A DNA stretch of 63,151 nucleotides, filler included, from Reclinomonas americana ATCC 50394 (taxonomy: Eukaryota): NCBI GenBank assembly GCA_048213135.1. It is 13 parts of 13 records of this genome, joined end to end, with 100 filler letters (N's around TTAATTAATTAA, not from the genome) between each part and the next. Parts side by side here need not be neighbours in the genome. Positions count along the whole stretch, not along the records: positions 36,035 to 47,432 come from AFZH01022335.1; 12 more parts are not named here. One strand, given 5' to 3'. The number at the start of each line of letters is the position of its first letter. Position 1 is the first letter of the stretch. Below the pieces are notes generated by a model. It saw nothing but the letters and a program-made list of their open reading frames with translations, made no database searches and was not told the origin of the DNA. Position numbers and translations under genes: made by a program. Shown here piece by piece: positions 6,665 to 54,851 of this stretch.

Positions 6665-7669
6665 TGTGCGCGCGCGCCAAAACAAACAAGACACACACGC
6701 GCACTTCTAACACGACAGAATGATGCGCGGCGTCTCTCTCTCTCTAATAGCGAGTCGCGAGAGATATGCGTGTGCGAGAGGGAGAGAAAGAGAGAGTGGG
6801 AGTGTGTGTGAGGGAGAAAGAGATACCAATATGTGTGGTGCGAGTGGGGGAGAGAGAGAGCGCACACACACAGAGCGGGGAAACAGGTGGCGATCCGCGC
6901 TCTGTGCACTCTCACTCACACGCGCCGCGACACACACACACGCGCGCACACACGAGTTAAACGAACAGTTTTTGGACACGGAGATGAACGTCGCGACGTC
7001 GCAAGCACGCAACCGCCGTTGCTCATGCGAGGCACAGAGAGTGATGCAGATTGCTACACTCACTAAGGCACGTGTAAAAGTGCGCGCGGAAAGTGCTTCT
7101 TTCTGTATGTACGACGTCGCGGATCCTCGACGTTGCAGATACCGGAACGCCATTGCCCAAGCCAGGCTCAGAGAATGATGCAGACGGCTACACTCACTAA
7201 GGCACGTTCAAAGCACGCGCTTGATCCGCTTTTCTCTGTGTTTACGATGCGTTTTGATTTATGCGATGCGCTGAATTGCAAGATGCGGATCAACTGCAAC
7301 GACGGAAGCGCGTCGCAGCGAGTTGCTTCTGCCAGCGTATAAAGCAGAGGAGGATAGATTGATGGATGGATAGGTGAAGAGAAGTGCAGGGTTCTGAGAT
7401 ACGGGACGGAGAACGTCGATCGCATCCATCAGCTTTGCGGTCAGTCAGAAACATTCCGACAAAAAAGGAAAGCAAAAAGGCGGGAAAACAAGTCAGCAAC
7501 GGTTGTCAAACNNNNNNNNNNNNNNNNNNNNNNNNNNNNNNNNNNNNNNNNNNNNTTAATTAATTAANNNNNNNNNNNNNNNNNNNNNNNNNNNNNNNNN
7601 NNNNNNNNNNNACGGGTACGGGTACGGGTACGGTACGGTACGTACGTCGTCGTCGTCGTCGTCGTCGTC

Positions 7670-7738
<69 letters not shown>

Positions 7739-7792: not shown

Positions 7793-10700
7793 ATGCACAC
7801 AGCTGCTCACCAGGAGCGCGTGAAACACACTGAGATGGAAGGCATCGTCGAGGTACACTGATTGTGTGTCATTCCGAGATGAGCGTGTCTCTCAGTAATC
7901 TCTCTCTCTCTCTGGCGTGTTTGGCACAGCAACGCGCGAGGAGGCGGCGAGTCGACTCGTCTCTGGTGGATCACCATGAGGACTCGCCTGCACGTGACTC
8001 AGAAGAGGCATCAGCTCGCAAGCGTTCTCTGGAGGTGAGCTCCAATAAGACACGCGTCTCAACTTGCCTCTCGCTTGTGCATCGCAGTTGACACCTGATG
8101 TTTTCTCTTCGTTCTCCACAGGTGGATGCATCCAGCGATGACGAGCTGGCACCGCCAAAGAAGAAGACGAAGGTGTGGATATTCTGTCGCTGAACATTGT
8201 TGTGCTTGTTCGTAGATCTGCATTTGGTTCTTGTGTGTCATCGTGATTTCACAGGGTGGCCAGGGTCAAGCTGCGAAAGAGCCAGAGGAGTTGAGCGCAG
8301 ATGAGAAGCTGTTGCTGAACAAGCTGCTTGTTGCGTGTGCATGCTCTCGCATCATCATTGCAACCCATCTCCTCGTCGCACTCACTATTCTTCGTGTCAC
8401 TCGCAGCGATGCAATCGGAAGAAGGTTCTGGTGAAGGCATTCGGCCTGTTGGCGCCTTTTGTTCAGAAATCTACAGTCCTCTACCATCAGAGTGTTCTCT
8501 TTGAGCTGGCCTGTGACGAGCGCGGAATTCCGTTGTCGGAACGGAGTCGCACGTCGTCCGCTGTCAAGTGTGCATTCGGCAAGAGTCTTGGCTTGAGTGC
8601 CATGGGTTTACGCGCCAGAACGCCAAAATCAGTGGAAGGTGTGCTCCGGCGAGTGGGCAACTACATCGAGGTGAGCAAGCATGTACGCCTGAAACGACCG
8701 TGGCATGTGAACCGACATGCAGGTGATTGCAATCTGCAGATGAGCCAGCTCTCTGGCGAGGCTCTGGTGGATGCCGTTGAGAGACCACTGATTGTGGTGG
8801 ATGAGCGCGGGTATTCGAAAGTGTGTTTGTGATGCATGATTTTCTGCTTGTGTTGTGATCATGTCGACTGACGTACGTTTACTCGGCTTGCTTGTGACAG
8901 GAATCGTGGGTGAGATTGGCACCGCTAAACAAGACCAAGAAAGACAATCTTCAGCCGTTTGTCAAGCAGGCCATGGATGCGTTGCGCGAGTGCAATGGTC
9001 TCATGGCTGCTCTGCTTCGAGACAGCCACCTCTCTGAGTCCGAGATGTCACGTGCTGTCGCTTGGTGTCATTCGAAAGGTCTGCGATCTCAAGTGGCAGT
9101 TAGTGTTGCTTGTGTTGGTGTTGATCAGCACCACGCAGAATCTGGCGGTGTGAAGATGGTGATGAAGGAGGAGAAGGATGTGGAAGAAGAGAAGGATGCC
9201 GTCAAGCTTGAACACGATGACACCAAGGTACGCAGCAATAGTACATGAGTAACGTAGGCTTGGTGCGAATGTGGGAGTCTTCATCGACTCTGTGAAGCGT
9301 TAACGTCTTGTGTGTCCGCAGGTGGAGACCGGCAGTGACAGTGACGAAGAATCGAAGCCGAGCAAGGTACGATGATACAATGTCTGTGTATGGTTGGTTG
9401 GTGAGGCAGGCTTGCTGATTGTGGATGTCGCGTCGCGTGTGCATTTGCAGCGCGTCAATCGCGATCGTCGTGTGCATGATGCGGAGATGAGCAAGGACGA
9501 GCGAATGGTGTTGGACAGACTGCTTGTTGCGTGTCGTGTGCATGTGCACAGCACTCGCCAAGGCTGAGTGATTGATTCTTCCGTGTGCATGCTTGTTGTA
9601 ACACTTGTATTGTGTATGTGCAAACAGCGATGCAACAAGAAGAAGATACTGGTGAAGGCATTCGGCATCATGGCTCCTGTTGTGAAACGACACGCAGTCT
9701 GGCATCATCGGCGAGTTCTTGTTCAACTCGCCTGCAAGGAGTGCGGCATCTCATCATCTGGAAGAGACAGTCTGTGGTCTGCAGTCATGGACTCATTCGG
9801 CAAGAGCCTTGGGTTTTTTGTCCAACATTCACGCGCCAACACACCCAAGTCCGTTGAGGGAGTACTTCAGAGCATGAGCACGTTCATCGAGGTGAGTATC
9901 TGTCTGTTCTGTCCATCTCACACATAACTAGAAAGTGAGCCAACAACGATGCGTGTGCAACTGCACAGAAGAGCGAACTGCACGGCGCCGCACTGGCGAA
10001 TGCCATCGAGAGACCACTGATTGTGGTGGATGAACGTGGTTATTCTGAGGTGCGCCAACTTTTCACTGTGTGCTTCGTGTATTTCTGCTTTTTGAGTTGT
10101 TGACTTACGTGCTTCTTCCACGATGTCGGTCGTGCTGTAGAACTCATGGAAGATGATGGAGAGGAAACGGAAGAGCAACGATCCTCTCCTGCCGCTCATC
10201 GCCCAAGCCGCGCAGGCGCTACGGGAGTGCCCTGGCTTGCAAGCGTCGCTGATTCGCGACGGCTGTCTCTCTGAGGCGGAGATTGCACGCGCCGTCGAGT
10301 GGTGCAGCGAAAGAGGTTGATGACATCGGATGCGTTCTACTGTGCTTGGGGTCAGAACTGACGAGCGAGTTGCAGCTCTGCTGGAGGCGAAGGTGATGAA
10401 AAAAGAAGAGATGAAGGAGGAGGAGGAGGAACGGGAGGATGATTCGAGGGAAGAAATGGACGACGATGAGGGCGACGACGTGGGCGACGGTGAAAGGAGC
10501 AAGGTACGACCATGTTTGGTGTGGCGGTTATGCACACTGTGACAGCATCTCATGATGCGCATTCACAGCAACGAGGGAGAGGTTCTGCAATGATGAGCAA
10601 AGACGAACAGCTGTTGCTGGCGAGGCTTCTTGTTGCGTGTGTTTGCATTTATGGCCTTCTCTGGCAGTCGTCTGGCTGATTGAGTGACCGATGTGTTCCA

Positions 10701-13608
10701 TGCGGGAGCAGTGCTGCAACAAGAAAAAGGTATTGGTGATGGCATTTGGCATCATGGCACCGATGGCGATGAAATCCACCGTCCACCATCACCAGCGTGT
10801 TCTTGTTGACTTGGCATGCAAGGAGTGTGGCATCCCTCCATCGAAAGCAGGCTGCCTGTCGTCGGCAGTTATGAGCTCATTTGGCAAGAGTTTTGTCGGT
10901 GTCGTCCAACATGCACGCACCAAGACGCCTAAGTCAGTGGAGGGAGTGCTCCAGATGATGAGCGATTTTATTGAGGTGAGTATCGTCCATATTACTTGAC
11001 TGAATCAATCAACGGCCAGCGCTAAAGCATGTACCGCAATGCAGAAGAGTGAACTGCGTGGCGCTGCCCTGACGGACGGCATTGAGAGACCTGTGGTTTT
11101 GGTGGATGAACGCGGCTATTCTGAGGTATGCCTGCCTTGTGCTCTGTGTACTTTGTGTGTCGTGAATGGTGTTTTCTCACATTCTGTGCTCTGGAATTCG
11201 GTTGTCAGGAGTCATCGCGCTTGCGCAACCAGCAGAATCCGTTTCTGCCATTTGTCACACAGTCCGTAGATGCCTTCCACAACTGTCCAAGCCTGCTGGC
11301 CACACTTCTTCGAGACGGCTGTCTGTCCGAGTCGGAGATCACACGTGCTGTCGAGTGGTGCAGTGGACGAGGTTCGGCTGTGTGGATTCTTTACTGCACT
11401 TTGTGCACATGTGCTCATTAACGACTGAAAAGCTCTGAGGGAGATGGAGATGGTGAAGAAAGAAGAGAAGTGGGAGGACGAGCAGGAGGATAAGGACGAT
11501 GGCAAGGTACGCCCCCATCGCCCGTTTCCATTAGATGCGAGACGAGTTCGTGTCCCAACTTTGTGTTGATTGTCTTTCACAGCACAGCAAGAGTGGATCT
11601 GCGAAGCTGAGCATCAACGAGCACTTGATGCTGTCGAAACTGCTTGTTGCGTGTTGCTGTTATCTCTATGCATGTCGCCGACATTGCTGTCACTCTCATC
11701 TGCTCACCACATCTTGGAGCAGGGTTGCAACAGGAAGAGGATGATGGTGAAGGCATTCGGCCTCATGGCACCCGTGGTGCTCAGATCCACAGTCCTCTAT
11801 CATCAGCGTGCTCTCTTCCAACTTGCCTGTGACGAATGCGGAGTGCCGTCGGAGGGACCAGGCTGGCCTTCAGCCGCAGTCATTTCTGCATTTGGCAAGG
11901 GTCTTGCCAAAAGAGCCGACACGGCACGCACCACAACGCCCAAGTCGGTGGAGGGCGTGCTCGAGAGTGTGAGCAGCTTCGTAGAGGCGAGTGTCGGTGT
12001 GGTGTTGCAGTGTCCTTCCGATTGTTATGTGCGCGGTACCTGACTTGTCTTCGACGTGGATGTCACCATCAGAAGAGTGGTCTTCGCGAAGCTGAGCTTC
12101 TGAATGCTGTCGAGAGACCGCTGATTGTGATTGACGAATGTGGCTACTCTGAGGCGCGTATGAATTGTGTGTGCTGATGTGCGTCATTGAAAGCTGGCTC
12201 ACATTGCTGTGGCTCGGATGGTAGGAATCAACAGCAAAATCGCAGAAGGGAGGCACTCCTAATGTTCTTTCGCCATTCGTTACCCAGGCCAGGCAAGCTC
12301 TTTGCAAATGTCCTCGCCTGCTGGCCACTCTGCTACGGGACGGCTGTTTACCGGAGGCGGAGATTGCACGCGCCGTCGAGTGGTGCAGTGAAAGAGGTTG
12401 GACTGCTTGTCTTCGTGGCTGCACTGTGCATGCATGTACTCACAAGCAAGTGACCAGTCGTCAGGGAGATGGAGATGGCGAAGAAAGAGGAGGAGAGGGA
12501 GGGTGAGCAGGAAGAAGACGATGACGACAGCGAAAATGAGGGCGATGACGCGAAGGGAAAGAAGGTACGCCCGACGCCCTCTTCAGTGAGATGCGAGGGG
12601 TACATCTTAATATTACGTGGCTTGTGTTTCACAGCGCCGCAAGATTGATCTTGCAAAGTTGAGCGTCAATGAGCAATTGATGCTGGCGAAACTGCTTGTT
12701 GCGTGTTTCTCTGTATGCCGCCACTGATGCTGTCATAACCTGCTCACCTTCATCCACCCGTCCATCTCTCGAGAGCAGAGATGCAACAGGAAGAGGATTC
12801 TGGTGAAGGCGTTTGGCCTCATGGCGCCCGTGGTGACGCCATCCACAGTTCTCCATCATCAGCGTGCTCTCTTCCAACTTGCCTGCGACGAATGCGGCTT
12901 ATTGTCAGGGGGACAGGGCTGCCCGTCATCCGCAGTTATGTCTGCATTTATCAAGAGTCTTGCCGGTAGTGCCAAGGTTGCACGCAATACGACGCCCAAG
13001 GCAGCTGATGGTGTTCTCGAGAGCGTGAGCATCTTTGTGGAGGTGAGTGTTAGTTTGCTTTCTTTGTGTCACATCCGTTTGTGGTGTGTTTGGCAACTGA
13101 TTTGCCTTCCATCTGCGCTTGTCATCATCAGAAAAGCGGACTTCGAGGAGCTGAACTGGTGGATGCTGGCGAGAGGCCTTTGATTGTGATTGATGAGCGT
13201 GGCTATTCTGAGGCATGTCTCATGATGTGTGGTTCTGTGTATCAATGACTCTTTACTTACTTTCTCGTTTTCGATTGACAGGAATCAGCAGAGTTACCGA
13301 AGAGTGGCAGGCCTGATTTTCTTCTGCCATTCGTCACACAGGCCATGGATATGCTCCGCACCTGCCCTGGCCTGCTGGCCACTCTGCTTCGAAATGGTTG
13401 CCTTTCGAAGGAGGAGATTGACCGTGCCGGTGAGCGCACCAAGTGCAACAATCTGAGAGCAACTGGTGTCGTTGCTCGTCGTGCCATCGTCAGTACTGAC
13501 GAGCACGCTGCAGTGCTGGGTGACGAGAAACCGGTGAAGATGGAGGTGGTGAAGAAAGAGGAGGAGGAGGAGGAGGAGGAGGAGGAGGAGGAGGACGAGG
13601 ACGTGTAG
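7793..13608 (+). CDS. Hypothetical nuclear protein with five tandem copies of an unrecognised ~190-aa domain separated by acidic linkers
   Basis: Exons splice into one open frame. Each unit reads LLxKLL|xCNxKxxLVKAFGxMAP...LACxECG...FGKSL...TPKSVEGVL...E|...ERPLIVVDERGYSE|...LPFVxQ...CPGLLATLLRDGxLSExEIxRAVEWC with the same intron positions. NLS-like PPKKKTK near the N-terminus; stop TAG at 13606-13608. The start codon is uncertain. Confidence 0.85.
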
Positions 13609-13960
13609 AGCAAGCAATTCAAGTTGGTGATGGAGAAGGACTTGGATGTGAACAGCAAGACAATGCTGTGGATGGACGATGATATATGCCTGCACCGGTG
13701 CGTGACGAAGGGTGTGGGAGTGAGAGACTGTGGGAGGGATAAGAGAGAAAGGGGAAGAGATTGCATGTTGTTTGTGGGATCGCAAAGCTTGTCGCAGAGA
13801 AAAAAAGAAAAAGAAGCACAGTGCACCAAGTGGACACTTGGAGCAACGACCGGAGGGACTCTGCATGTTAGTATCGTCTTCGTGCAGCTGACTACGGTTG
13901 CCGCAGGAGGAAGAGCGAGACGAATGAAGGAAGATTAGAACCAATTAAACCATATTTCAT

Positions 13961-22500: not shown

Positions 22501-23557
22501 TGTCGTGCTCTCAGGTGAGGAAGGGGAAGAGAGATGACATGAGTTGATGAGCAGTGGGACAGGCAGATGGAGAAGCCCGTCTCACAGATAAGCAAGGAGA
22601 GAGGCCAGATGGACAGATGAGGAACGAGTCAAGTTGTTGTGAAGGGAGGGACAACTCAGAGACAAGAATAGCCTTGAATCAGGCAGTGAGAAAACTGCGC
22701 TTCGGATGCCACATGGAGACATAATATCGGGACAAGTTGTTGTACTTAATCAGTTTCTTTAGGTAGAAGGGGGAGGCACAACTCGGTCACAAGCAGAGCT
22801 TTGAGACAACTGTGAATCGGAGGCCATATGGAGAGACTAGGAACAACCCTAGTTGTTGTACTTGAGCAGTCTCTTAGAATAGAAGGGGAGGTACAACTCA
22901 GCGGTGAGACTGGCAGTGAGACAGCTGCGCTTTGGAAGCTTCAAGGAGAGATGAGGAGCGACCCTAGTTGTTGTGCTTGAGCAGTCTCTCGAGGTAGAAG
23001 GGGAGGTGCAAGCGGAGCTGTGAGACTGGCGGTGAGACACTGCGCTTCGGAGGCTAGATAGTGAGATGAGGAAGGAACGAGTCAAGTTGTTGTTCATGAG
23101 CAGCCAGGCAGTATGACGTTTTCAATTTGGAGGCAGAAGGAGTGAGGAGGAACGAGAAAAGCTGAGTATTTCAGGGAGATCAGCATTTTCTCACCTTCCA
23201 TTGCCCTCCACGCAGGACACCACCATTCGCCTGTGGGACCTGTCGATCGGACGCTGCATGTGCGTGTACCGCGGCCACCAGCTGCCCGTCTGGCAGTGCG
23301 TCTTCTCGCCCATGGGATACTACTTTGCCACGGTGTCGAACGATCGCACCGCGCGCTTGTTCTGCACGGAGCGGCTGTATCCGCTGCGGCTGTTTGCCGG
23401 GCACTTGACGGATGTGGATGTTGCGTGGCGAGTGGGGGTGGTGTGTGTGGAGGGTGGTGTATCTCATTCGTGGATGCAGTGTGTGACATTCCACCCGAAC
23501 TGCAACTACATCCTCACCGGCTCCAGCGACAAGACTGTGCGCATGTGGGATATTCAG
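18847..23557 (+). CDS. TAF5: TFIID subunit TAF5 (NTD2 + WD40), spans a gap, 3' partial
   Basis: NTD2 ELSQFLFPLFALCYLELI; LPSVCMFT; WD repeats LIGHSAPVY, YRGHQLPVW, PLRLFAGHLTDVD|CVTFHPNCNYILTGSSDKTVRMWD. The Ala/Gln-rich first exons (18847-20403) are assigned by position and strand only. Confidence 0.92.
19190..19990. repeat. Intronic composite tandem repeat with (GA)n/(GT)n spacers
   Basis: About five units containing GAGAGGGTGTGCA...CTTGTGCAGAGAT...TTCGAGTTGTCTG...TTGCATTTGCTC. Confidence 0.8.
22620..23100. repeat. Intronic tandem repeat (unit about 105-120 bp) in TAF5
   Basis: AGTTGTTGT...GAAGGGGGAGG...GGCAGTGAGA...CTGCGCTT recurs four to five times. Confidence 0.8.
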
Positions 23558-30417: not shown

Positions 30418-32766
30418 AGGGCCACCTGGAACTGTGGAGACCACGCTGTGCTGCATCGACTGGTCATTTGTGGGGCGACCTGAGTTGAACTTGTCCGGCA
30501 AGGGTGCGCTGCTGGTTCAAGAATGTGCCTTGATTGCGTATCGTTGCTCATTTGATTGTATCGCGGTGCAGTGTCATTGCCGCAGAGGATATTGCAAGAG
30601 TGCTGTTGCGTATCGTGGAGAGAGGGGGCACCGTTGTCATTCGATTGTGTCTTCACTGGTGTTAATATTTCGCACTCAAGTGCTTGTGATACGTCGTGCT
30701 CGTCTCTGTTTCATTGAGTTTATTTTGTTCTCTCTGTTCTCTTCTCCTCGTGTCTCATCTCTTCTCCTCTCATTTTCTATTCTCAGCTGACCTTTTCGCT
30801 GGCTGGAGGTGCTGTTTTGTCCTCAGCCATCCGGTATTCCTTTCACTATTATCGCCGTTTTCCCTTCCCCCTTCACCGTCTTCCTCCCGTTCTCTCCTCT
30901 GCCCATCACTTTCTTTCCCTGTTCCCCTCCTTCACCTCCGTCTTCTGCCGCCTTCTCATCTCCATTCTATCCCCCTTCCTTTCCTTCCACTCATCGTCCG
31001 CTTCCCCTTCTCCCTCCCTTTTCCCACTTTTACATTCCCTGCTCCCCTCCTGTTTTTCCTCCTTCACCTCCCGTTTTTACCCGCATTCCCTTTCCCCTTC
31101 ATTTCCTTCACTCATCTTCCGCCTCCCCTTCCCCCTTTCCTTCACCTATCCTTTTCCCTGTGCCCCCTGCCTCCCTTCTCTTCCCCTCACCTCCCTACGT
31201 GGCAGTGATGCGCGCCGTGCCCATGCCCTTCACCTTCCGCCTCGAGAACCCCATCACGGGCCTGGTGACTCACGCCAGTGCGCCCGAATTCGACGCCGAC
31301 GAGGGCCACGTTGTCCTGCCGCACTGGGTAACGTCACGGATCTCTCGCACATTTGTGAGCATCTCACTCACCGGTGTCACCCACGACACAGATCATGCAA
31401 AACCTGCGTCTGGACTACCAAGACCAGGTCAACATTCGCACTGTGGCGCCGCCACGCGGTGTCAAGGTCACCGTGCAGGGCCACTCGTCAGAGTACGCTC
31501 AACTTGGTGCCGAGTTTGAGAATGTGTTGCGTCTCTCAGTCGGTCTCGATGTCTGTCTGTCTCTCTCTCTCTCTCACACACGCACTGTCTCTCTCTCTCT
31601 CTCTTTGTCTTTGTCTGTTGTGATCTGCATCCGTCAGGCCGTCTCACTGTGTGAGTGGGTGTATCTTTAGTATGCGTGTACTCTTGTGTATCTGTCTCTG
31701 TACAACTCCATCTGCACCCCCCTTTCTGTCTCTCTGTCGCGTCGCTATTATTTCTCTCGCTCTCTCTCGGTCGGTCGGTCTGTGTGTGCGCGCTGTGTTT
31801 CTGTCTCGTATGCTCGAAAGAGAGTATGTGTATGCCTGTGTCATGCCTGTAAGTGTATGTGCATCTGCTTTCTTCGATCTCTCTCCCCAGTCTCCATCCT
31901 GTCGCTCTTTTCATCTAATCTCGTCTCACCCTTCCCCCTCTTAGCCCCTCTCTCCCCCTTTTTCCCCCCTTTCACCATCTCACCTTCCCCCTTCCTACCC
32001 TTTTTCCTCTCCCTTCCTTCCCCCTGTCTCCCCCTTCCCCCTTCCCTCTTCCCCATTCTCCCCCTTTCTCCCCTTTCTCCCCCCTTTCACCATCTCACCT
32101 TCCCCCCATTCCTCCTTCCCCCCTTTCCTCCTTCCCTTTTTCTCCCCCTTCCCCTCCTCTCCAGCTTCTGCCACCACATGAAGGACTTCCCCGTGCTGAC
32201 CACCGGCGACATTGTGTCGCTGGACGTGTTTGGCGAGCCCGTCGCCTTCACCATTCTGGAGGTGTACTCGGAGGAGGGCAAGTGCGAGGTCATCTCCACC
32301 CTCAACACGGATCTGACGTTGCAAATCATGCCGCCTCTTGACGTGGCGCCCGCACCAATGGCCGAGCAGCCGACAGAGACGCACTTTTTCGAGGAGACCA
32401 TGGCCGAGCCGGCGTTCCGCTCGAGTTCGGGCTTTGAGTACTTTTCGTCCATTGACGCCATTCTGCTGAATCAGCCGCCGGGCACGCCGACCACACCGGC
32501 CCCGGAGTCGGTGGATGGGCAGTTTATTGTTGCGTGATGCAACATGAGTGCTCTCTCGCAGAGTTGTGGTGGTTGACAGCTATTGCGGTTTGCAGTCGCT
32601 GCCACGTGGATTCCAAGCATTCACCGGGCAGGCCAGGACGCTGGGACGTAAGCCGGCACCGGGCGGTGGCGGTGGTGGTGGTGGTGGAAGTCCGAGTGGT
32701 TCGCGTGGTGCGGCGAGTGGGAGTGGGTCGTCTGCTGCCGCCCCGCCACCACATCGCTCGCCGTGA
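30418..32766 (+). CDS. UFD1-family p97/Cdc48 cofactor, divergent, 5' partial
   Basis: LNLSGK|VSLPQ, PFTFRLEN, THASAPEFDADEGHVVLPHW|IMQNLRL, FPVLTTGDIV, ISTLNTDL and SHP box FQAFTGQARTLG. Confidence 0.85.
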
Positions 32767-36332: not shown

Positions 36333-37090
36333 ATGAGTGCGCGCAAACACCGCAAGCTTCTCGCGAGCAGCAGCACCAAGAAGAAGAAGATACGACATCG
36401 CGAGCCACCTTCTGCCTCAGAACGTGATGACGACAGCGACTATGTGCCTGAAATGGAGGAGGGAGAAGACGAGGATGATGAGGAAGATGAACTTGCAGAT
36501 CTTGTGAAAGAAGAAGAAGAAGAAGGAGAAGAGGAGCAGCTTCCCGAACGCAGTCGTCGTCATCGTCGAGCTTCTGAGGGACTGGATGCGTCGGAGGAGA
36601 GCAGCAATGTTCTGTGCGCAATGGGAATGGTGGAGAGCGCGAGGCACTTGGTGCAGAAGCGGGAAAAGTATTCGGGCAAGAAGCGCGTCGTCGTGAATGA
36701 GGAGAATGTGGAGGAGGGCAAGGGAGGTGAGTGGAGACACACACTCTCTTTGCATTTTTTCATTGCTCCTCGTGTACCTCTCTCTCCCTATCACTCTCCC
36801 TGTCTCTTTCTGTCTCTCTGTCTCTGTCTTCCTGCTCTCTCAGCAGCTGGTTTCGTTATGGCAAGCCTCGCAAATCTTGTCTCTCTCTCTCTGTCTCTCT
36901 GTCTCTCTCTTCATGCACTCAGCAGCTTGTATCGTTTCGGCAAGACCTGCAAGTCTTGTCTCTCTGTGTGTCTGCATCTTTTCATTGCTCCTCGTGTGCC
37001 TCTCTCTCCCTATCTCTCTCTCTCTATCTCTCTGTCTCTCTTCCTGCTCTCTCAGCGGCTTGTTTCGTTATCTCAAGCTTCGCAAGTCTT

Positions 37091-37127
<37 letters not shown>

Positions 37128-37327
37128 TGCATCTTTTCATTGCTCCTCGTGTGCCTCTCTTCTTGCGTTGTCTTGTGCTTGCCTCTCTCTCCCTATCTCT
37201 CTCTCTCTCTCTGTCTCTCTGTCTCTCTCTCTTCATGCACTCAGCAGCTTGTTTCGTTATGGCAAGACCTGCAAGTCTTGTCTCTCTTTCTCCCTCTCTC
37301 TCTCTGCATCTTTCATTGCTCCTCGTG

Positions 37328-37364
<37 letters not shown>

Positions 37365-40300
37365 TCCTGCTCTCAGCAGCTTGTTTCGTAATGGCAAGAC
37401 TTGCAAGTCTTGTCTCTCTCCGCATGTTTTCGTTGCTCCTCGTGTGCCTCTTCCTTTCCGTTGCGCCTTCTTCTCCTTCACCTGTTCCTTCCCCTTATTC
37501 CTTCCCCCTCTTCCTCCCCCTTTCCCCTTCTCCTTCTACCCACTCTCACCCTCCCCTTCCAGAGTACTCTTACTGCCCGATCGAACGCGAGCCTCCCGAC
37601 GACATCTCCGCCACGTGGAACAAGGCATCGCGGTGGAATGTCTTAGAGAAACTCGTCCGCACCTCATGGAGACGGTGCGCTGCTTTTTTTTTCTTGCCCT
37701 CTAGAAGGGGGAAGGGGGCGGAAATTGGAACATCCTTTTCCTCTTCCTTCTCCCTTCGCCATTCCCTTCTATGTTCCCCCTTCTCAAGCGCTCGTTCTCA
37801 AATACTGACATGCAGTGATGTCGACGCTCCGAATCCGAACTTGTTGCCGATTGAGACGGCGCCGTGCAGCTCCACCAACGCCGACGTGCAGGCGGCGTAT
37901 GCAGAACTGCGCGAGATGATTGCGGCGCTGGTGGAGGAACAGCTCTACGCTTCGTCGCTCCCATTGTTGTCCGATTCCATGCCGCCGGATGAGCACGATT
38001 TCGCGGAGGTAGAGAACGCGGCGGCGATGGAGCTCCTCGCTGTTCTCACTTCGTCCCTGCGGCGATTCGAACGCGATGAGCGGTACGTGCGTCCGAGAGC
38101 TTTGTTGCGTGTTCGAGTGCTGTTCACACCCTTGCGCAGCGACGCCACCCTCGTCTCCTCCATCACCGATCGCTGTCTGCGGACGTGTGACGGTGCCGTG
38201 CGTGCCTCGCTGCACCTGCTTGTCCGTCAGTGGTGCGGTGCTGTTGATGCGCGACTGGAGTGTGCGTGGTTGCTATTGCACTCACTGCGGGGTTTTTTTC
38301 GCGTTCTCGACAGGGAGTCGAAAAGGAAGTTGAACAACCCCAGGCGGCCACATGTACCTCTTGCCGCGGCGTGTTTGCAGCCGAATGTGCCGGGGAAGTT
38401 GCGCGAGAAGAAAGGGGAAGGGAAGGGGGGAGAAGGGAAGGGAAAGGGGAATGAGAAGGATATGAGACTGACTTGGAAGAGGGGAGACCGAGAAAGGTTG
38501 AGGGCGAGAATAAGTGAAGAAATGGCGAGGAAATTGAGAAAGTTCAACAGAGATATTGAGTAAGAGACCAGGAGGGGAAAGTAATAGAGGCAACAAGTAG
38601 GCATTAATCGCGAAGAGACTGACGCGTGGGAGAAAGCGAGTGAGGCGGGAAAGGGAAGCCTGAGAACAAGGAGAAGTAAAGAAAGACGAGAAAAGAGGAG
38701 AAGACGCGCAAGGGCGAAAGGGAAAAGAATAGGAAGACCGGAGGGGATATGAGCCAACAAGTTGGCGTGCAGGGTGCAGAGTTTATGAGACTTGACGCGC
38801 GGGAGAAAGAGAGAACAAAGATGTGGGGCGGAACAGGAAGAGCGAGGATGAGGAGAAGCGAGGAAGACGAGAAGCAGAACAGGGCGAGGGAAGGGAATCA
38901 GAGACAACAACTGGAGTAGTGAGGAGACAGGAAGGACAGCAGAAAGATATGGGTAAGAATTGCACGGGAAGGCGGAGAGCGTGAAACATGTGGGAGGTGA
39001 GAAGGCAGATACGCATTGGCGCGGAATGGAGGAATTGGAAGGAAGCGATAAAACATGATAGTTGGCAAGCAGGGTGTAGAGTTGTCACGCCAACATGTTG
39101 GATGAACAGCACATGAAACATGTTGTTTGTATTTCCCCAATCCTATTTCCCCTATTCCTTTCTCCTCCCTCTTTCAGCTCCTCACTCCCTACCATCTCAA
39201 TGCTGTTCCTCGTTCCCCTCGTTCCTCCTTTCCTTCTTCTCTCTCTTCTCCTCACTCTTCCCATTTTTCACTGCCCTCCTTTCCTCCCATTTCCTTCCAG
39301 TTCCCTCCTTCCTCCTCTCGCTCCTCTCTCCTCTCGCTGCTTCGCTTCGCTGACTTTGCATGCCTGCCAGGGTCATCCAACGCGTTCACAAATCCATGGC
39401 CGACCTCTTCTCTGAAAAGACGCCCCAGGTGAGTTGTACACGCCAGAGTACTTTATGCTGCAATGCAGTCGTGATCTTACTGGTGCGAGTGCCCTGTGTT
39501 GCCGATTGAAGAAGCAGACGCCGAAGAAGAGTGCGGTGAGCTGCGTTTTGTAATGCGCCGTAAACGAGTTTTTAGTGTCTCACTCTGACGACAGCCTGTG
39601 GAGCCTGAGGAGGAAGAGGCGGATGAGGTTTGTCGCGTTGCGGGCAAGTCTCGTGGCACACGCATCCACAGCTCACCCGTTATTCGCAGTCGAGCGAAGA
39701 GGAGAGAGGCGAAGACGACAAAGAGCACCGCGAGGCAGTTGCGCTCGCAGACTGCTGCGTGCTGTCCTTTCTTTCCTCACAGCTCCGCACAGGAGGACAC
39801 GGACGAATCACAGGAGATTGTCGCCAAGGTTACGTGCGCGCCCCGCTCTCCTTTCTCCCTTGCCGTGCTCAATTCATCTCTGTCTGCTGCAGCCTGCGCG
39901 ACGCGCCAAGAGAGATTCAGTTACGCAACTTGGAAGCAACCGGCCACGCATTTTGTGTTGACTCATGTTCGGCGTGCAGCGGGCGCGGTCGAAGGGCGAT
40001 GTCATTGTCGAGTCGGTGGGTGCACGAGTTTCTGAGATCGATTGCCTGCAGCCTCTAACATGTGCTTTATCGCAGCTGGAGGTGATGGACAGTCCGCGAT
40101 CGTCACAGGTACTCGCAGTACGCCGCGAAGCGACTGATAGGAGATGGGATTTGTGAGGAGGATGAAGAGGAGAAGAGGATGAAGAGGAGAAGAGTGATCT
40201 CTCTGTGAAAGAGAAATGAGAAACTCTCTCTCTCTCTCTGGAAGAGAAAAGCGAAACTCTCTCACTCTCTCTCTCTCTGAAAGAGAAAAGAGACACACAC

Positions 40301-43000
40301 GCTCTCTCTCTGGAAGAGAAAAGAGAAACTCTCTCTCTCTCGCTGAAAGAGAAAAGAGACACTCTGAAAGAGAAAATAGAAACTCTCTGACTCCGAAGGG
40401 GAAAGAGAAACTCTCTCTCTCTCTTACTGAAAGAGAAACGAGACGTTCTCTCTGAAAGAGAAAAGAGACCCGCACTCTCTCTCTCTCTCGCTATGGTGCT
40501 GACCCTCGTGTACTGCAGGATTCGGAGAGCAAACGCGCTAGTCCACTCGTGTCCTCGGTTTGATGTGTAGTTTGCTCGTTTATCGTCAGCAGTGAACTTA
40601 TCCACTCCATTGCGCAGCTGCACGAGGATGAAGATGAGCACAGGCAGTCGGTGAGTTTATTGCCGAAATGTGCGGTCATTGTGGTGCGAAGTGCTGAATT
40701 CAAATCAATGCAGCCGGTGGTCGAGGAGGACGAGGAGGATGCGGAAGAGGAGAAGAAGGAAAAGAAGAGGAAGAAGAGGGTGCAGAATACGGAGCAGGAG
40801 AAGAAAAAGAAGAAGAAGAAGAGCATGAGGAAGAAGAAGGAGGAGGTTTGTTGGCTCTGAGTGCGTGCAAGGTCGGTTGGATGTGAGATAACTGACTGTG
40901 GTTGCGTTCATTGAACAGGAGAGCAGCGAGGAGGACAAGGAGGTGAGTGGGGAAGGGAAAGGGGGTAGAGGGGGAAGAGGAAACGGAGAAGGGGGAGGAA
41001 GAAGAGCAGGATGTGTTGTGCTTAAGAGCTGCAAAAATGTGTCATGAGCTTTTGTGGAGAAGCAGAGAGAAGCAATGGAATTATGGAGGAGATGGGCATG
41101 ATTGTTGACTAAAATAGGAGAGCAGCGAGGAGGGCGAGGTGATACCAGGAGATAGAAGCAAGGGGAGTGCAGAGGAGAAGAGCAAGAACGAGGAGGGAGG
41201 CGTAATTGTGCACGGCCACGTCGGTAACTGACTCCATTGTGTTGCTTGAACAGGAGAGGAGTGAGGAGGACGATGAGGTGAGTAGTGAGGGGGAGAGACG
41301 GGAAAGGAGAGAGAGGGGGGAGGGGTGGGTGTGACGCGCCGGTTGCTGATCTTGGTCTATTGATCGAATAGGAGGCGGACGATGAGGAGGCGGAGGTGAG
41401 TAGGGAGGGGAGGAGAAGAGAAGGAATGGGAGCGAGGGTGTGACGCGATGGTTGCTGACCTTGGTTTTTATCGAATAGAAGGCGGGCGATGAGGAGGCGG
41501 AGGTGAGTAGGGAGGTGGGAAGAAGGGAAAGGAGAGAGAGGGGGGAGGGGTGGGTGTGACGCGCCGGTTGCTGATCTTGGTCTATTGATCGAATAGGAGG
41601 CGGAAGATGAGGAGGAGGAGGTGAGTAGGGACTGGGAGGAGAAGAGAAGAGAATGGGAGCGAGGTGTGACGCGATGGTTGCTGACCTTGCTTTGTTGATC
41701 GAATAGGAGGCGGACGATGAGGAGGCAGAGGTGAGTTGTGAGTGAGAGGGTAGGAAGTGGAAGGGGGAGTAGGAGGAGAGCAAGGAAGAAGAATATGGAG
41801 ATAGATCGGCTCACTTAAGTTGTGTCAATCTACCAGGAGAGCGACGAGGACGATAAGGTGAGTTTGGTCTCAGCGGCAGAGAAGGAAAGAGAGAAAGGCA
41901 AGCGGAGCAGTGGGAGTAGGAGGAGGGAGTGTGACACTCGATGGATGACTGTGCCACATGTTTGAATAGCAGAAAGATGTTCTTCCAGGTGGAAATGTGT
42001 GAGAGAGAGGATCCAGAAAATAGTTTTGCTTTCTCTTCACTTGTGTGCACGTCGGTTGCTGTCTTTTGTGTCAATCGAACCACGAGAGCAGCCAGGGAGG
42101 ACGAGATGAGCACGGGCACCGAAGACAGGAGGGTGGAGTGGGAGGAGGGAGTGGTTGTCAGAGCGGGAATGAGAGGAGGATGCAGAATTGAGTTTTTGCC
42201 AAGCTACCCCCTGCTTGAATAGGAGAGCGGCGACGACAAGGAGGGCAGAGAAGGGTGGAGAGAAAGTAGAGCAGAGCAGTGGGAGCTGGAGGACAGAGTG
42301 TGGCATGCGAACGGAGTGGTTGTCAGTGTGGAAAATAGAGAGGGATGTAGAGTTGAGTATGGTTAGCACTCCCTGGTGGAATAGGAGAACGGCGAGGACG
42401 ATGAGAGCGGAGAAAGAAGGAGAGAAAGTAGAGCAGAGCAGCAGAGTGAGAGGAGTGCGTGTGACACTCATGTTGAGAGGAAATGAGAGGTGGATGCAGA
42501 AGTGAGTTCGTCAAGCTCCCCCTGCTGGGGGAACGAGATCTGTCGAGCGTTTCATCGAGATCAGCACGAACAATGAGAGAAAGGACGCAGCTCCTTGTGT
42601 GTCACTCACTCGCTTCGTTGCAGAAACGTGCCAAATTGAAGCGACAACGCGCAAAGGTTTGTCAGCACATTTGTGGAGTGCCTCCAGCTTCTCGTCGCTC
42701 ACTTGTTTGCTGCAGGAACGTGCTGAGGCGAAGCAACAGCGCGAACAGGTACCTCGTCGATCACCTCTGTTTCTCTCGTGCCCGTTTTGTCGCTGAGTGT
42801 GCGCCGCGCAGCAGGAGCGTGAAGAGTTGCAGAAGAAGCAGCGGAGCGACAAGAAGGTATGGTTGATTGTGTGCTTGTCCCTTGCCTGTTTGCTGACTTG
42901 TTCCTCGTCGTAGCACGCAAGTCGCAAGAGAGCGCGATCGCCGGCCGAGTCCGACGACTCGCCCTCGCCGGCGCCAAAGAGGCGCACGCGGCGCAAGTGA
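36333..43000 (+). CDS. Hypothetical, probably nuclear, protein with basic termini and an acidic tract built from micro-exons
   Basis: MSARKHRK...KKKKIR N-terminus, internal helical exons, E/K-rich exons, and C-terminus SRKRARSP...PKRRTRRK* (TGA 42998-43000). Not every internal junction was resolved. Confidence 0.6.
36740..37450. repeat. Intronic tandem repeat
   Basis: CAGCAGCTTGTTTCGTTATGGCAAGACCTGCAAGTCTTGTC-like and CATTGCTCCTCGTGTGCCTC-like blocks each recur about five times. Confidence 0.85.
40190..40490. repeat. Intronic minisatellite
   Basis: About nine copies of TGAAAGAGAAAAGAGAAACTCTCTC-like units. Confidence 0.8.
40919..42404 (+). repeat. Tandem array of intron+micro-exon units (21-24-nt phase-0 exons)
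   Basis: AG|exon|GT at 40919, 41118, 41254, 41372, 41479, 41597, 41707 and 41837; degenerate copies near 42084, 42222 and 42384. Confidence 0.8.
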
Positions 43001-43108: not shown

Positions 43109-45184
43109 TCACTGCGGCAGCGGCCAGCCGAGGCCGCGGAAGCCGGAGAACATGTCCCAGCACTTGTGCATCGACTTGAGCTTGTCGGACTCGTCGAACA
43201 CCATTGTGTAGACGTAGTCGCACTGGGCGCTCTTCGGCGGCTCCGACGGGGGAATGGGGCCACCGGCCCCAGAGTGGGTGATGAAGAAGCTGCGCGCGAA
43301 AGGGAGGGGGGAAGTGAGTGGTGGATGAGAGGAGAGGGGGTGGGGGTGATTTGCGTGCTCACCGAGCGACGACGACGGCGGTGCGCTCGTGGTCGTTGAA
43401 GGCCCAGGCGCGGACGTCGTAGGTGGCGCCAGGGGCGATGCCGGTGACGAGGCCTGGTCGAGGAGGGGGGAAGGTGAGGGAAGGGGAAGGGAGGAGAGAG
43501 GAGAAGGAGGAAAGAATAGAATGAGAAGTTGAGAAGGATGAAAGAAAGGAATGAGAAGGGGAGTGGGTGGAGAGGAAAGAGAAAGGGGAGAAGGAGGAAA
43601 GAACGGGAGTGAGTGGAGAGGGACGAAAAGGAATGAGAAGGGCAAAAGAATGGGAAGGAGAGGAAACCAAACTACATCAGGTGGATGGGTAAGTTCCACA
43701 TTTGCATGCAAGACAGCAACGATGCGAAGAGCAGATGAGGTGCTGGCGGAGGTGAAGAGCGTACAGTACAAGAACAGTGCACGACAAGAGCAACATGAGC
43801 AGAAACATGACAGTCAGAGTGAGAAAACTGTGCTGAGTGGGTGAACGGGGAGAGAAGTTGCAGATTCTCTCTTGGGGACGACGAGACAAAGCCATACATC
43901 GGTGTTCGTGGCGAGACAGAGAATGAAGAGCGCCAGGTGCGCGAAGGAGAAGGGAAGAGAGCGAGAGAGATAGAAAAGGAGAGACAGACAGATATAGAGA
44001 CAGAAAGAGCGCATACGCTCGCGAAAAAAGAGTTGCGCATTGAGATATCAGAGAATAGAGCAAGTCGACAGCACGGCCAGCAAAAGATTTCAGTCCATGC
44101 CACCTATATAGCGGTGCGAGAACGGAACTCGAGAGTGAGACAGACAGAACTAGAATCCATGGGTGAAGAGCACAAGGTGATGAGAGAAGAGAGCACGTCT
44201 AACGTCGGGTCGTGAGAGGAAAGCAACACTTGCACGAGAGAGCGAGCACATGCAGAGTTTGAGAGTGGAGAGGGAGAGGGAGGGAGTGAGCAAGGACAAG
44301 TCTTGCGCAGAGAGGTGCCACACGAGAGACGAGTGCGCATCCGGGCCTCGTGTGTGACGCGAATGCACAGCCACTCACCCTTCATCCAGTCAGCATCTGC
44401 ACATGCAAGCACCACGTCAGCAACCACTCGCCACACACAGCAAGCACAAAGAAGCACGCAACATTCGCCAACGGTCTTCATCGGCAACACGTCGCACTGG
44501 AACGTGTTGTCCGGGGCCAGGAACTCGGCCACACCTTCACCGCCCTGCGAATATTGGACGGGAAATATATCAGCAATTACGAACACGCGGTGACGAGGGA
44601 AAGAAAGGTGAGCAGACAACGAGGAGGGTGCAGAACAGGAGGTGGTGGAACACGGCGAGTGACAGGAGAAGTGAGACAAGAGACATGCAAGTTTGATGAT
44701 GAATGCAAGAGAGAGAGAGAGAGTACGAGGAGGAGGTGGCGTAGAAGAGAGAGAGGAGTGTGTGTTGAGTGAGTGAGAGGGAGCGAGAGGGAGAGAGGGA
44801 GAGAGAAGGTTGGAGCAAGGAGACATTTCCCACCTCGGGAAAATACTCACGCACTTGTCTTGCACAACACGCAGCGCACAAACAGAAAACGGACACACAC
44901 AGTATGGCAGCACATCATGCAAGAGAGAGTGTGTGTGTGTTACGTGTGTGTGAGGGAGAGAGAGAAGAGAGAGAAAGAGAAAAGTGCAATGCATTCATAC
45001 ACACGCATGCATGCAAGCCAAGCACTCACCGCGCCGCTCTCGACAGCGACAAAGAATGCGCGTGCTGCGTCCTGCGCACACACAAGAGCAGAGAGAGAGA
45101 AAGAGAACAAAAGTCCGTCAGTCACACACACACACAGAACATGAGAAGCATTTTTTGCATTGTGCGACTCACGTGGAAAGACAT
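43109..45184 (-). CDS. SnoaL-like / NTF2-fold 'polyketide cyclase' protein of bacterial type, five introns
   Basis: Spliced: MSFH|DAARAFFVAVESGA|GGEGVAEF...TF...VGE|YADWMKG|LVT...YDVRAWAFNDHERTA...|FFITHSGAGGPIPP...DYVYTMVFD...MHKCWD...LGW. This matches the recalled bacterial motifs AFFEACETG, YxEWMKGL, THTGEGGP, DYVYVM and LGW. Confidence 0.8.
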
Positions 45185-47258: not shown

Positions 47259-47332
<74 letters not shown>

Positions 47333-47532
47333 GTACGTACGTAGTACGTACGTAGTACGTACGTACGGTACGTACGGAGTAGGTAGTAGGTAAGGTAAGG
47401 TAACGGGTAACGGGTAAACGGGGTAAACGGGGNNNNNNNNNNNNNNNNNNNNNNNNNNNNNNNNNNNNNNNNNNNNTTAATTAATTAANNNNNNNNNNNN
47501 NNNNNNNNNNNNNNNNNNNNNNNNNNNNNNNN

Positions 47533-53369: not shown

Positions 53370-54734
53370 TCATGAGGCCTCTGGCTGTTCACGATGCCAC
53401 GGCCACTCGGTATTGAAGGTGTCGAGCAGCAAGTCGCGCATGGCGCTGTCCTTGCGCACGGCCAGCAGATCCACGACGCACCACGAGAGGCCGCCCAGTC
53501 TCGTGTGTGAGTCCTGACACATCTCATAGTCGCTGTCCCACCACACCCCTGAAACGGGCAGCAGAAGACCGTCGCCGAGTGCATACAGCTCGTAGCCCAT
53601 GACGTGCACGGCCATGGCAAAATCGCGCAGCGTTGGACTCGGCACGTCGCCAATGGCGCGTGGTGCCGGGTACTTGCGCATGCTTGCCGCTCGATACACG
53701 CCGTTCCACATGAGCGAGTACTCGAACGAGGCCAGCTCCACCAGCCCGGCCCGGAGCAAGCCCTCCATGCCGGCCAACACATGTGACTCCCAACCCTCGA
53801 CATCGACCTTGACGTAGAGAATGCGCCGACCGGCCAGCAAACGCGCTCGCTCGTCGGTGGCAAACAGCGAATCCAGTGTGGTGACAAACACACGGTCCAC
53901 CTTCTCCCCGTGCACACCGGCGGCGACCTCGCGCTCCGACGGCGGTCGCAGAGAGAACAAGTTGCCGGCCCCCACTTCCTTGGAGGCCAGCGAGTACAGC
54001 GGCAACTGTCCGACCGTGTCACCCAGGGCCACCTTGTGCAACTGGAAGGTCGTGCTGGTGCTGTCGGCGTCGGTGATGTTGAAGCGACGCTGCAGCTCCT
54101 GCCGCAGCATGCGATGCGCACGACTGGCCGGCTCAAAGGCCACCACGTGGCACCCACCGCGCATCAGCTCATACGCCATCAGCGCATCCGACGCGTCCAT
54201 GTCGTCGTTCCAGTGCGCCGCCCCCACATCTACGATAATCGGCCACGGTTGCGCCAGCGCTGCGTGTGCCTTGCTGTCGCGCTCTCGCAACTCCGACAGC
54301 GCTCGTCCATACACCCAACGCGCCAGTCGTTTCAGCGGACCAGGCGATCCTCCGGCCGAGTGATGAAACGCGCGACCGTGCTTCCGATACCAGTCGGTGA
54401 GGCGCGAGCGCATGCGCAGCGTGTGCGTCAGTTGCACAGTGGACATGGATGGGCCGGTCGCAGACTGGAAGGCGAGTGTGTGTGAGAGAGAGGGAGAAAA
54501 GGAAGAGGGGGGAGAGAGAGACGCAACGCTGCACAGGCGCTCGCCGATGCGCTCCAACGCAGAGAGAGTGGATGAGTCGCGACGACGCGTGGCAGTTGTC
54601 GGCATTGTGGAGGTGGTGGTGCTCGTGGACTCCATCGCTGAATGGAGAGCAGTGAAGAGCAGCAAGCTGCCGAGCACACAGCCGAGTGTGAGGCCGGCCA
54701 GGAAGGTCAGGGCCAGTGCCCATGATGGGCGCAT
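53370..54734 (-). CDS. FkbM-family (Methyltransf_21) SAM-dependent methyltransferase with an N-terminal membrane anchor
   Basis: Hydrophobic WALALTFLAGLTLGCVLGSLLLF; IVDVGA, VVAFEP, VALG, TTLDSL, YVKVDVEGWESHVLAG; probable in-frame intron at 54527-54465. Confidence 0.9.
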   Translation of the reverse strand: MRPSWALALTFLAGLTLGCVLGSLLLFTALHSAMESTSTTTSTMPTTATRRRDSSTLSALERIGERLCSVASLSPPSSFSPSLSHTLAFQSATGPSMSTVQLTHTLRMRSRLTDWYRKHGRAFHHSAGGSPGPLKRLARWVYGRALSELRERDSKAHAALAQPWPIIVDVGAAHWNDDMDASDALMAYELMRGGCHVVAFEPASRAHRMLRQELQRRFNITDADSTSTTFQLHKVALGDTVGQLPLYSLASKEVGAGNLFSLRPPSEREVAAGVHGEKVDRVFVTTLDSLFATDERARLLAGRRILYVKVDVEGWESHVLAGMEGLLRAGLVELASFEYSLMWNGVYRAASMRKYPAPRAIGDVPSPTLRDFAMAVHVMGYELYALGDGLLLPVSGVWWDSDYEMCQDSHTRLGGLSWCVVDLLAVRKDSAMRDLLLDTFNTEWPWHREQPEAS

Positions 54735-54851
54735 CGATGATGAAGAAACCACGCAATCGTCCCACAGCGTCCGATATCACTTTGCTTCCTTGACAACAAC
54801 AAAGCACGACTGCCGCGACGTGATGCTTGCTAATACATCATCACAGTTCAC

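Follow-up and report, generated by a model that had tools for sequence, protein, structure and literature searches.

According to the accessible parts of the reports, the micro-exon genes (MEGs) of schistosomes encode small secreted proteins with signal peptides, are coded for up to 75% by micro-exons, have introns of 0.1-5 kb and have been shown to undergo exon skipping (10.1101/2023.06.21.545858; PMC4350168; PMC4015677). In Schistosoma mansoni, SmPoMuc is described as a mucin gene family at the host interface, with copy-number polymorphism and demonstrated transcript variation and with units of about 1 kb, including the 27-bp exon 2, that are more than 93% identical via concerted evolution (PMC2576457; PMC4015677). 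Besides, consecutive symmetric exons in disordered proteins are reported to arise by internal tandem duplication, e.g. in AMBN (Schad et al., PMC3632108). As far as the accessible text goes, the aphid bicycle/megacycle genes, which encode salivary-gland effectors with Cys-Tyr-Cys motifs, also have many micro-exons, nearly all of phase 2, and show internal duplication (PMC9168663). The literature search, outside which most subscription papers fell, turned up no report of protist micro-exon arrays that are acidic and include dead copies.

The locus presented here belongs to Reclinomonas americana ATCC 50394 and lies on the contig at 36035-47432 (AFZH01022335.1) of the window, i.e. the whole stretch of 63,151 nucleotides that was analysed, which consists of 13 contigs joined by N linkers and whose DNA is eukaryotic and rich in introns. 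It comprises eight micro-exons (u1-u8) of a larger predicted gene and their decayed copies (d0-d4; Table 1). The likeness to schistosome MEGs put forward in the initial annotation stands for the many short symmetric exons that could be skipped without frameshift, but not for the micro-exon share, the signal peptide or the long introns. Exons of at most 36 nt make up 468 of 1824 nt (26%), as against up to 75%; a hydropathy scan, the only signal-peptide test applied and made on the predicted start, gives a best 19-residue value of -1.25 in the first 40 aa (1.01 overall) and thus no signal peptide; and the array introns measure 83-175 nt, as against 0.1-5 kb in the MEGs as described in the accessible parts of those reports. 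Since these three defining features fail, the host gene is not a schistosome MEG.

Closer to SmPoMuc, as portrayed in the accessible text, are the tiny in-frame exon and flanking intron halves in tandem within one gene, the purine-rich simple sequence at unit junctions and the exon size, 27 bp there and 21-24 here (PMC2576457; PMC4015677). In contrast, the Reclinomonas units are diverged and 107-199 bp long, with only the sister introns of u4-u7 approaching the >93% identity; no paralogue was found, dead copies lie in place, and the product is Glu/Asp-rich rather than mucin-like. With the exons of Schad et al., insofar as that source is accessible, the array shares same-phase runs, repetitive sequence and similarity between neighbours; the former are human and have long introns, whereas the latter sits among introns of 60-175 nt in an intron-dense protist and displays decayed copies beside live ones (PMC3632108). 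The symmetric-exon class is defined by at least three successive same-phase exons, and 22 modelled phase-0 introns follow one another in the host gene. Regarding the bicycle/megacycle genes, the accessible account agrees in the many micro-exons of nearly a single phase and in the internal duplication, but not in the phase itself, which is 0 here, nor in the product, a charged, likely nuclear protein (PMC9168663).

Four conserved genes of the window, hand-spliced into frames without stops, served as the point of comparison for gene structure. Their matches were DDX18 and the Pfam families WD40, ABA_GPCR and UFD1_N2, the last under the cut-off; the DDX18 exon, on a separate contig, showed a top identity of 78% (to a jakobid), the remaining matches being at 64-77%. 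We take two of the four to be TAF5-like and GPR89-like. Introns in these genes are mostly 56-100 nt long and 8 of 22 are in phase 0. Splice-signal matrices were trained on 50 hand-picked introns of the window outside the array, 28 of them from one gene, for which the median branch score is 7.0 and the 10th percentile 2.9. Six parses of the array region were run, frame-blind in three settings and frame-constrained in three; these parses recovered 13-15 of the 22 modelled introns and over-predicted on their own training genes. Of note, 8 of the 50 hand-annotated introns begin with GTTGCG, as does the long fifth intron of the host gene (from 38398), and 3 of the 50 begin with GC. Runs of short GTAC/ACGG-type units occupy the contig ends at 7612-7670 and 47329-47432; presumably they reflect a sequencing artefact, and we assume that homopolymer lengths in the assembly may be unreliable.

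Table 1. Predicted features of the host gene, its micro-exon array and the remnants downstream (positions in the window; scores from the splice-signal matrices)
Feature	Position	Strand	Description
Host gene	36333-43000	+	28 exons; 607 aa, free of internal stops; hand model plus splice scores
Exon 1	36333-36726	+	basic NLS-like start, acidic disordered segment, no hydrophobic signal
Exons 2-5, span	37563-38397	+	sole non-charged part, probably helical
Exons 2-5	37563-37674, 37816-38082, 38140-38232, 38314-38397	+	hand model
Eleven small exons upstream of array	39371-40845	+	modelled with phase-0 introns; 58, 18, 33, 45, 36, 27, 36, 33, 39, 33, 132 nt
u1	40919-40942	+	live, 24 nt; acceptor 98th percentile, branch 7.0, donor 9.1
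u2	41118-41138	+	21 nt; weak: acceptor 1.1, branch 4.4, donor 2.9
u3	41254-41277	+	live, 24 nt
u4	41372-41395	+	live, 24 nt
u5	41479-41502	+	live, 24 nt
u6	41597-41620	+	live, 24 nt
u7	41707-41730	+	live, 24 nt
u8	41837-41857	+	live, 21 nt; donor opens predicted 766-nt intron 41858-42623
d0	41925-41988	+	intron tail akin to u4-u7, z 3.4-5.4; AG kept at 41970
d1	42084-42105	+	branch A lost, AG to AC, GT to AT; 22 nt, extra base in G run
d2	42223-42243	+	AG kept; branch site lost (0.3); donor gone by 14-17-nt deletion
d3	42385-42405	+	duplicate of d2 (repeat family, 84%), identical donor deletion; branch site weak
d4	42490-42540	+	intron tail akin to d2/d3, z 5.2-8.5; no exon (about 42538)
Final four exons	42624-43000	+	33, 33, 45, 87 nt; stop at 43000

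In the hand model, the intron phases of the host gene read 1, 2, 2, 2, 2 and then 22 times 0, and 17 of the 28 exons do not exceed 36 nt; most introns outside the array are near 60 nt. Several donors of the pre-array exons are weak (a GC at 39735, then 39920, 40016 and 40558), so some of these exon boundaries are model-dependent; likewise, the run of 22 phase-0 introns is partly so because several weak boundaries within 39690-40650 were missed by the unbiased parse. The exon at 38140-38232 has an alternative donor at 38260. The phase-0 bias is partly expected from Glu/Lys/Gln codons: in the array-side coding half, 105 of 140 positions following an AG are in phase 0; for the 14 non-array introns, the resulting value is 0.018. 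In a strict frame-blind scan, lengths were multiples of three in 13 of 14 candidates within the array-side half (two of the 14 being alternative acceptors of the same exons) versus 16 of 36 elsewhere.

The predicted protein lacks any hydrophobic segment and bears basic clusters at its N- and C-terminal ends, which together suggest that it is likely nuclear; its tail, encoded by the last four exons, is basic and Gln/Glu-rich, with an NLS-like cluster right before the stop. The array forms residues 481-542, with a mean hydropathy of about -2.5, between two Lys/Arg-rich blocks. No homologue emerged among 7140 candidates of 335-1068 aa, and the sole phmmer match among 1.84 billion representatives, a 788-aa tandem repeat aligned over 36 residues, was set aside as unrelated. 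Pfam gave nothing at cut-off for the three pieces of the gene searched, Atlas matches were all at or below 0.84 and HEAT/ARM-like, a lead only, and a single-sequence AlphaFold model of 37565-38398, in-frame introns included, reached a pLDDT of 37.7. In metagenome contigs, no match to the array pattern was obtained and, among 170 stretches fitting the peptide patterns, none was confirmed; Rfam returned no match on the array contig. Sequence searches with the array and with exon 3 likewise yielded no look-alike stretches. An antisense ORF at 40705-41814 was rejected as a gene, being judged by eye a Ser/Pro/Leu shadow of the purine-rich strand. A convergent intron-containing gene (43109-44600, -) ends 109 nt past the host gene stop, without a Pfam match in the two frames tried.

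Eight frame-preserving exons with defined peptides had been proposed at this place, and all eight were recovered, each preceded by AG, followed by GT and lying between codons, hence symmetric (0-0); their peptides are as proposed (ESSEEDKE, ESSEEGE, ERSEEDDE, EADDEEAE, KAGDEEAE, EAEDEEEE, EADDEEAE and ESDEDDK). The pattern YAG-(21 or 24 nt)-GTGA occurs nine times in 40846-42623, eight of the nine being array exons; 2000 order-2 Markov resamples gave 1.4 on average and 8 at most. As the copies are related, the observed count is not one of independent events. Seven of the eight have donor scores of 9.1-10.3, ranking in the uppermost 1% of the 7577 GT sites, as well as branch scores of 6.9-7.8, and seven were found exactly by the frame-blind parse in all three settings. 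The exception, u2, is missing from all six parses, and its weak signals make it the foremost candidate for an exon that is dying or subject to skipping; of the whole array, it is probably the likeliest to be skipped. Retention of the array as unspliced sequence is unlikely because every one of the seven internal introns would bring one or two in-frame stops and the frame runs through four more exons to the stop at 43000.

Alternatively, the array might be a minisatellite within an intron, G/A-rich and only resembling exons, that leaves the transcript in one piece; or the host gene might be mis-assembled or a pseudogene in decay. The host protein is indeed without homologue in the searches, exon-free tandem repeats do occur in other introns of the window, and purine-rich DNA yields Glu, Asp and Lys without selection, the coding sense of d2 and d3 being still acidic. 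Yet the five older live lineages (u1, u2, u3, u4 and u8) agree at 52 of 60 pairwise positions of donor +1 to +6 (87%) and at 24 of 30 of the acceptor triplet (80%), while intron middles match at only 144 of 370 (+9 to +45, 39%) and 103 of 310 positions (-30 to -60, 33%). In addition, exon lengths are multiples of three in 8/8 cases, the 607-codon frame is intact and closes just before the stop of the convergent gene, and the many substitutions between copies argue against collapse, so that these possibilities are held to be very improbable.

Rather than a mimic, the array is probably a set of working exons derived from one another. The introns around them had been annotated as near-duplicates in an alternating pattern, and this is borne out: between those at 41278-41371 and 41503-41596 (94 nt each) there are 2 mismatches and 2 gap columns, between those at 41396-41478 and 41621-41706 2 and 5, respectively, whereas the two types stand 12 mismatches and 11 gap columns apart. 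The youngest live exons, u4-u7 (41372-41730), stem from a 225-bp duplication of two units (clade support 91) with breakpoints at about 41296 and 41521, in the purine-rich start of the intron. Apart from this clade and d2+d3 (98), supports in the unit tree, from which d0 and d4 were left out, are 35-66, too low for a full order of events. Within u4-u7, changes affect 5/24 exon sites, similar to the 10/45 of intron sites (series 5/24, 10/45, 3/12), four of the five exon changes being non-synonymous; the exact residues of the array look to be under little constraint.

Downstream of u8, three broken copies had been pointed out, and their sites are as described, with AC before and AT after d1 and with AG kept and GT absent at d2 and d3. 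The predicted 766-nt intron holds five remnants rather than three, all with low branch scores (0.3-3.3). In d0, the branch site is weakened (2.5) and the sequence past the AG is unrelated to the exon. The 22-nt length of d1 could be a homopolymer error, its substitutions could not. The branch score of d3 (3.3) exceeds the 10th percentile of the training introns, which makes this copy weak and not proven silent; d1 and d2 were never parsed as micro-exons in any of the three frame-blind settings. Both d2 and d3 lack the first 14-17 nt of the intron after u8 and are sisters, from which it follows that the donor was lost first and the dead unit then duplicated; d4 is, judging by its similarity, a further partial copy of the d2/d3 unit. 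A U12 (AT-AC) intron was considered for d1 and rejected: U12 introns start with AT(ATCCTT) and end with AC, and at d1 the AC ends an upstream stretch starting with GT while the AT opens the downstream stretch and is followed by GAGC.

Some of these copies might nevertheless be used via shifted sites: d3 might supply a 43-nt exon (42385-42427) that is joined to a 2-nt exon (42500-42501, +) within d4, or d2 a 75-nt exon running to a donor at 42298. In the 2-nt candidate, acceptor, branch site and donor are all strong, and it passes the strict thresholds that live exons pass; by itself, it would shift the frame and remove the basic tail, and the combination of 43 and 2 nt, chosen in two of three frame-constrained parses, restores the frame. 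Such a restoration is, however, due to chance one time in three, and the 36 strict candidates elsewhere in the window lead to about 0.2 being expected per 766 nt. Moreover, the branch scores of d2 and d3 are poor, the donor at 42428 is below the listing threshold, and the positions homologous to it after d1 and d2 are TT and not GT; usage of this kind is deemed highly doubtful.

Internal repeats were also seen in 4 of 10 other long introns examined, introns of the conserved genes among them. The introns at 36727-37562, 38398-39370, 22515-23215 and 30504-31205 contain internal tandem repeats and no evident exon, and several long introns run from a purine-rich 5' end to a pyrimidine-rich 3' end. 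With a dead unit duplicated and repeats in exon-free introns, duplication looks blind to function. A neighbouring contig carries a stop-free gene of about 1200 aa (7836-13609, +) in which a multi-exon unit is repeated five times in tandem, with exons of 63-75, 264, 81 and 148-178 nt plus an acidic linker exon; 23 of its 28 introns are in phase 0, three GC donors sit at homologous positions, and neither a Pfam match at cut-off for two pieces nor a usable Atlas match was obtained. Elsewhere in the window, an ORF without introns at 53370-54776 (-) encodes an FkbM-type methyltransferase (PF05050, E 2.6e-10) on a contig of 61% GC, compared with 52-58% in most others; this contig may come from another organism.

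Granting the same origin, the eight exons could instead be cassettes, any combination of which might be left out, so that isoforms with net charges of about -12 to -51 would coexist, as in schistosome MEGs or SmPoMuc and in keeping with the charge tuning suggested in the initial annotation; this is considered rather unlikely. Their symmetry would keep the frame for any subset; the array, 62 residues of which 69% are Asp or Glu, contributes -39 of the protein's net charge of -51 and moves the predicted pI from 5.8 to 4.9; and its introns exceed the typical 56-100 nt. Sister pairs alone also change more in exons (5/48) than in introns (4/177; Fisher p=0.023), an excess that drift alone does not predict and that is gone on the four-copy tree; since only nine substitutions are involved, it is not read as selection for diversity. 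Symmetry is, though, equally a precondition of tolerated duplication and so no sign of skipping, sites are near consensus in seven of the eight exons, units were duplicated even when dead, and a nuclear-looking protein without signal peptide is under no evident host-driven pressure for variation. In the accessible part of the comparative literature, weak sites and long flanking introns accompany skipping, which exon shortness favours too; outside animals, retention of introns is the more frequent mode, and it is largely in animals that multiples of three are enriched among skipped exons. Bigelowiella, where skipping is associated with short introns, departs from this pattern in intron length (PMC6142364). 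As the sites here are strong and the introns short, the opposite of what accompanies skipping in that source, inclusion is likely the rule, and charge tuning by skipping would be possible but less likely than constitutive splicing. A protist rheostat, in which combinatorial skipping of young phase-0 micro-exons would adjust the acidity of a protein that is intracellular and likely nuclear, by way of its acidic tract, with births and deaths at the array edge, is an improbable proposal; if true, it would extend MEG-style diversification beyond animals and beyond secreted proteins.

The preferred explanation, considered probable, is that of eight working and mostly constitutive exons, generated by tandem duplication of half-intron, phase-0 exon and half-intron, which would add a 62-residue acidic tract to the presumably disordered tail of a likely nuclear protein, the downstream copies having lost their splice signals and being likely removed within one long intron. 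Birth of exons by duplication with their introns and death by splice-site loss, as initially suggested, is supported by what the sequence shows, namely unit homology, a recent two-unit block duplication, signals kept in live copies and broken in dead ones, and a donor deletion common to two of the latter. Mechanistically, slippage or unequal crossing-over in the G/A-rich middles of introns would copy half an intron, the exon and half of the next intron, each event yielding a new chimeric intron with intact ends. As a 0-0 exon preserves the frame and a tract that is presumably disordered would tolerate added residues, copies could persist, selection acting on clean splicing and frame and not on exact residues. 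Copies would then die through signal loss, merging into a longer intron, and loss of a donor may be tolerated once the branch point or acceptor of the copy is also dead.

Beyond the three broken copies, the present analysis brings out the loss of branch points, the common donor deletion, two more remnants and the repeats in exon-free introns, as well as the weakness of u2 and the embedding of the array in a longer run of small phase-0 exons, the array not being a gene of its own. The locus clearly exemplifies a known mode of gene growth, and offers within 1.7 kb a snapshot in which exon copies that are young, old, weakening or dead lie next to one another. Tandem duplication went on where no exon was left to select, and the duplication of a dead unit is an argument that arrays of this type need no selection on each copy in order to grow.
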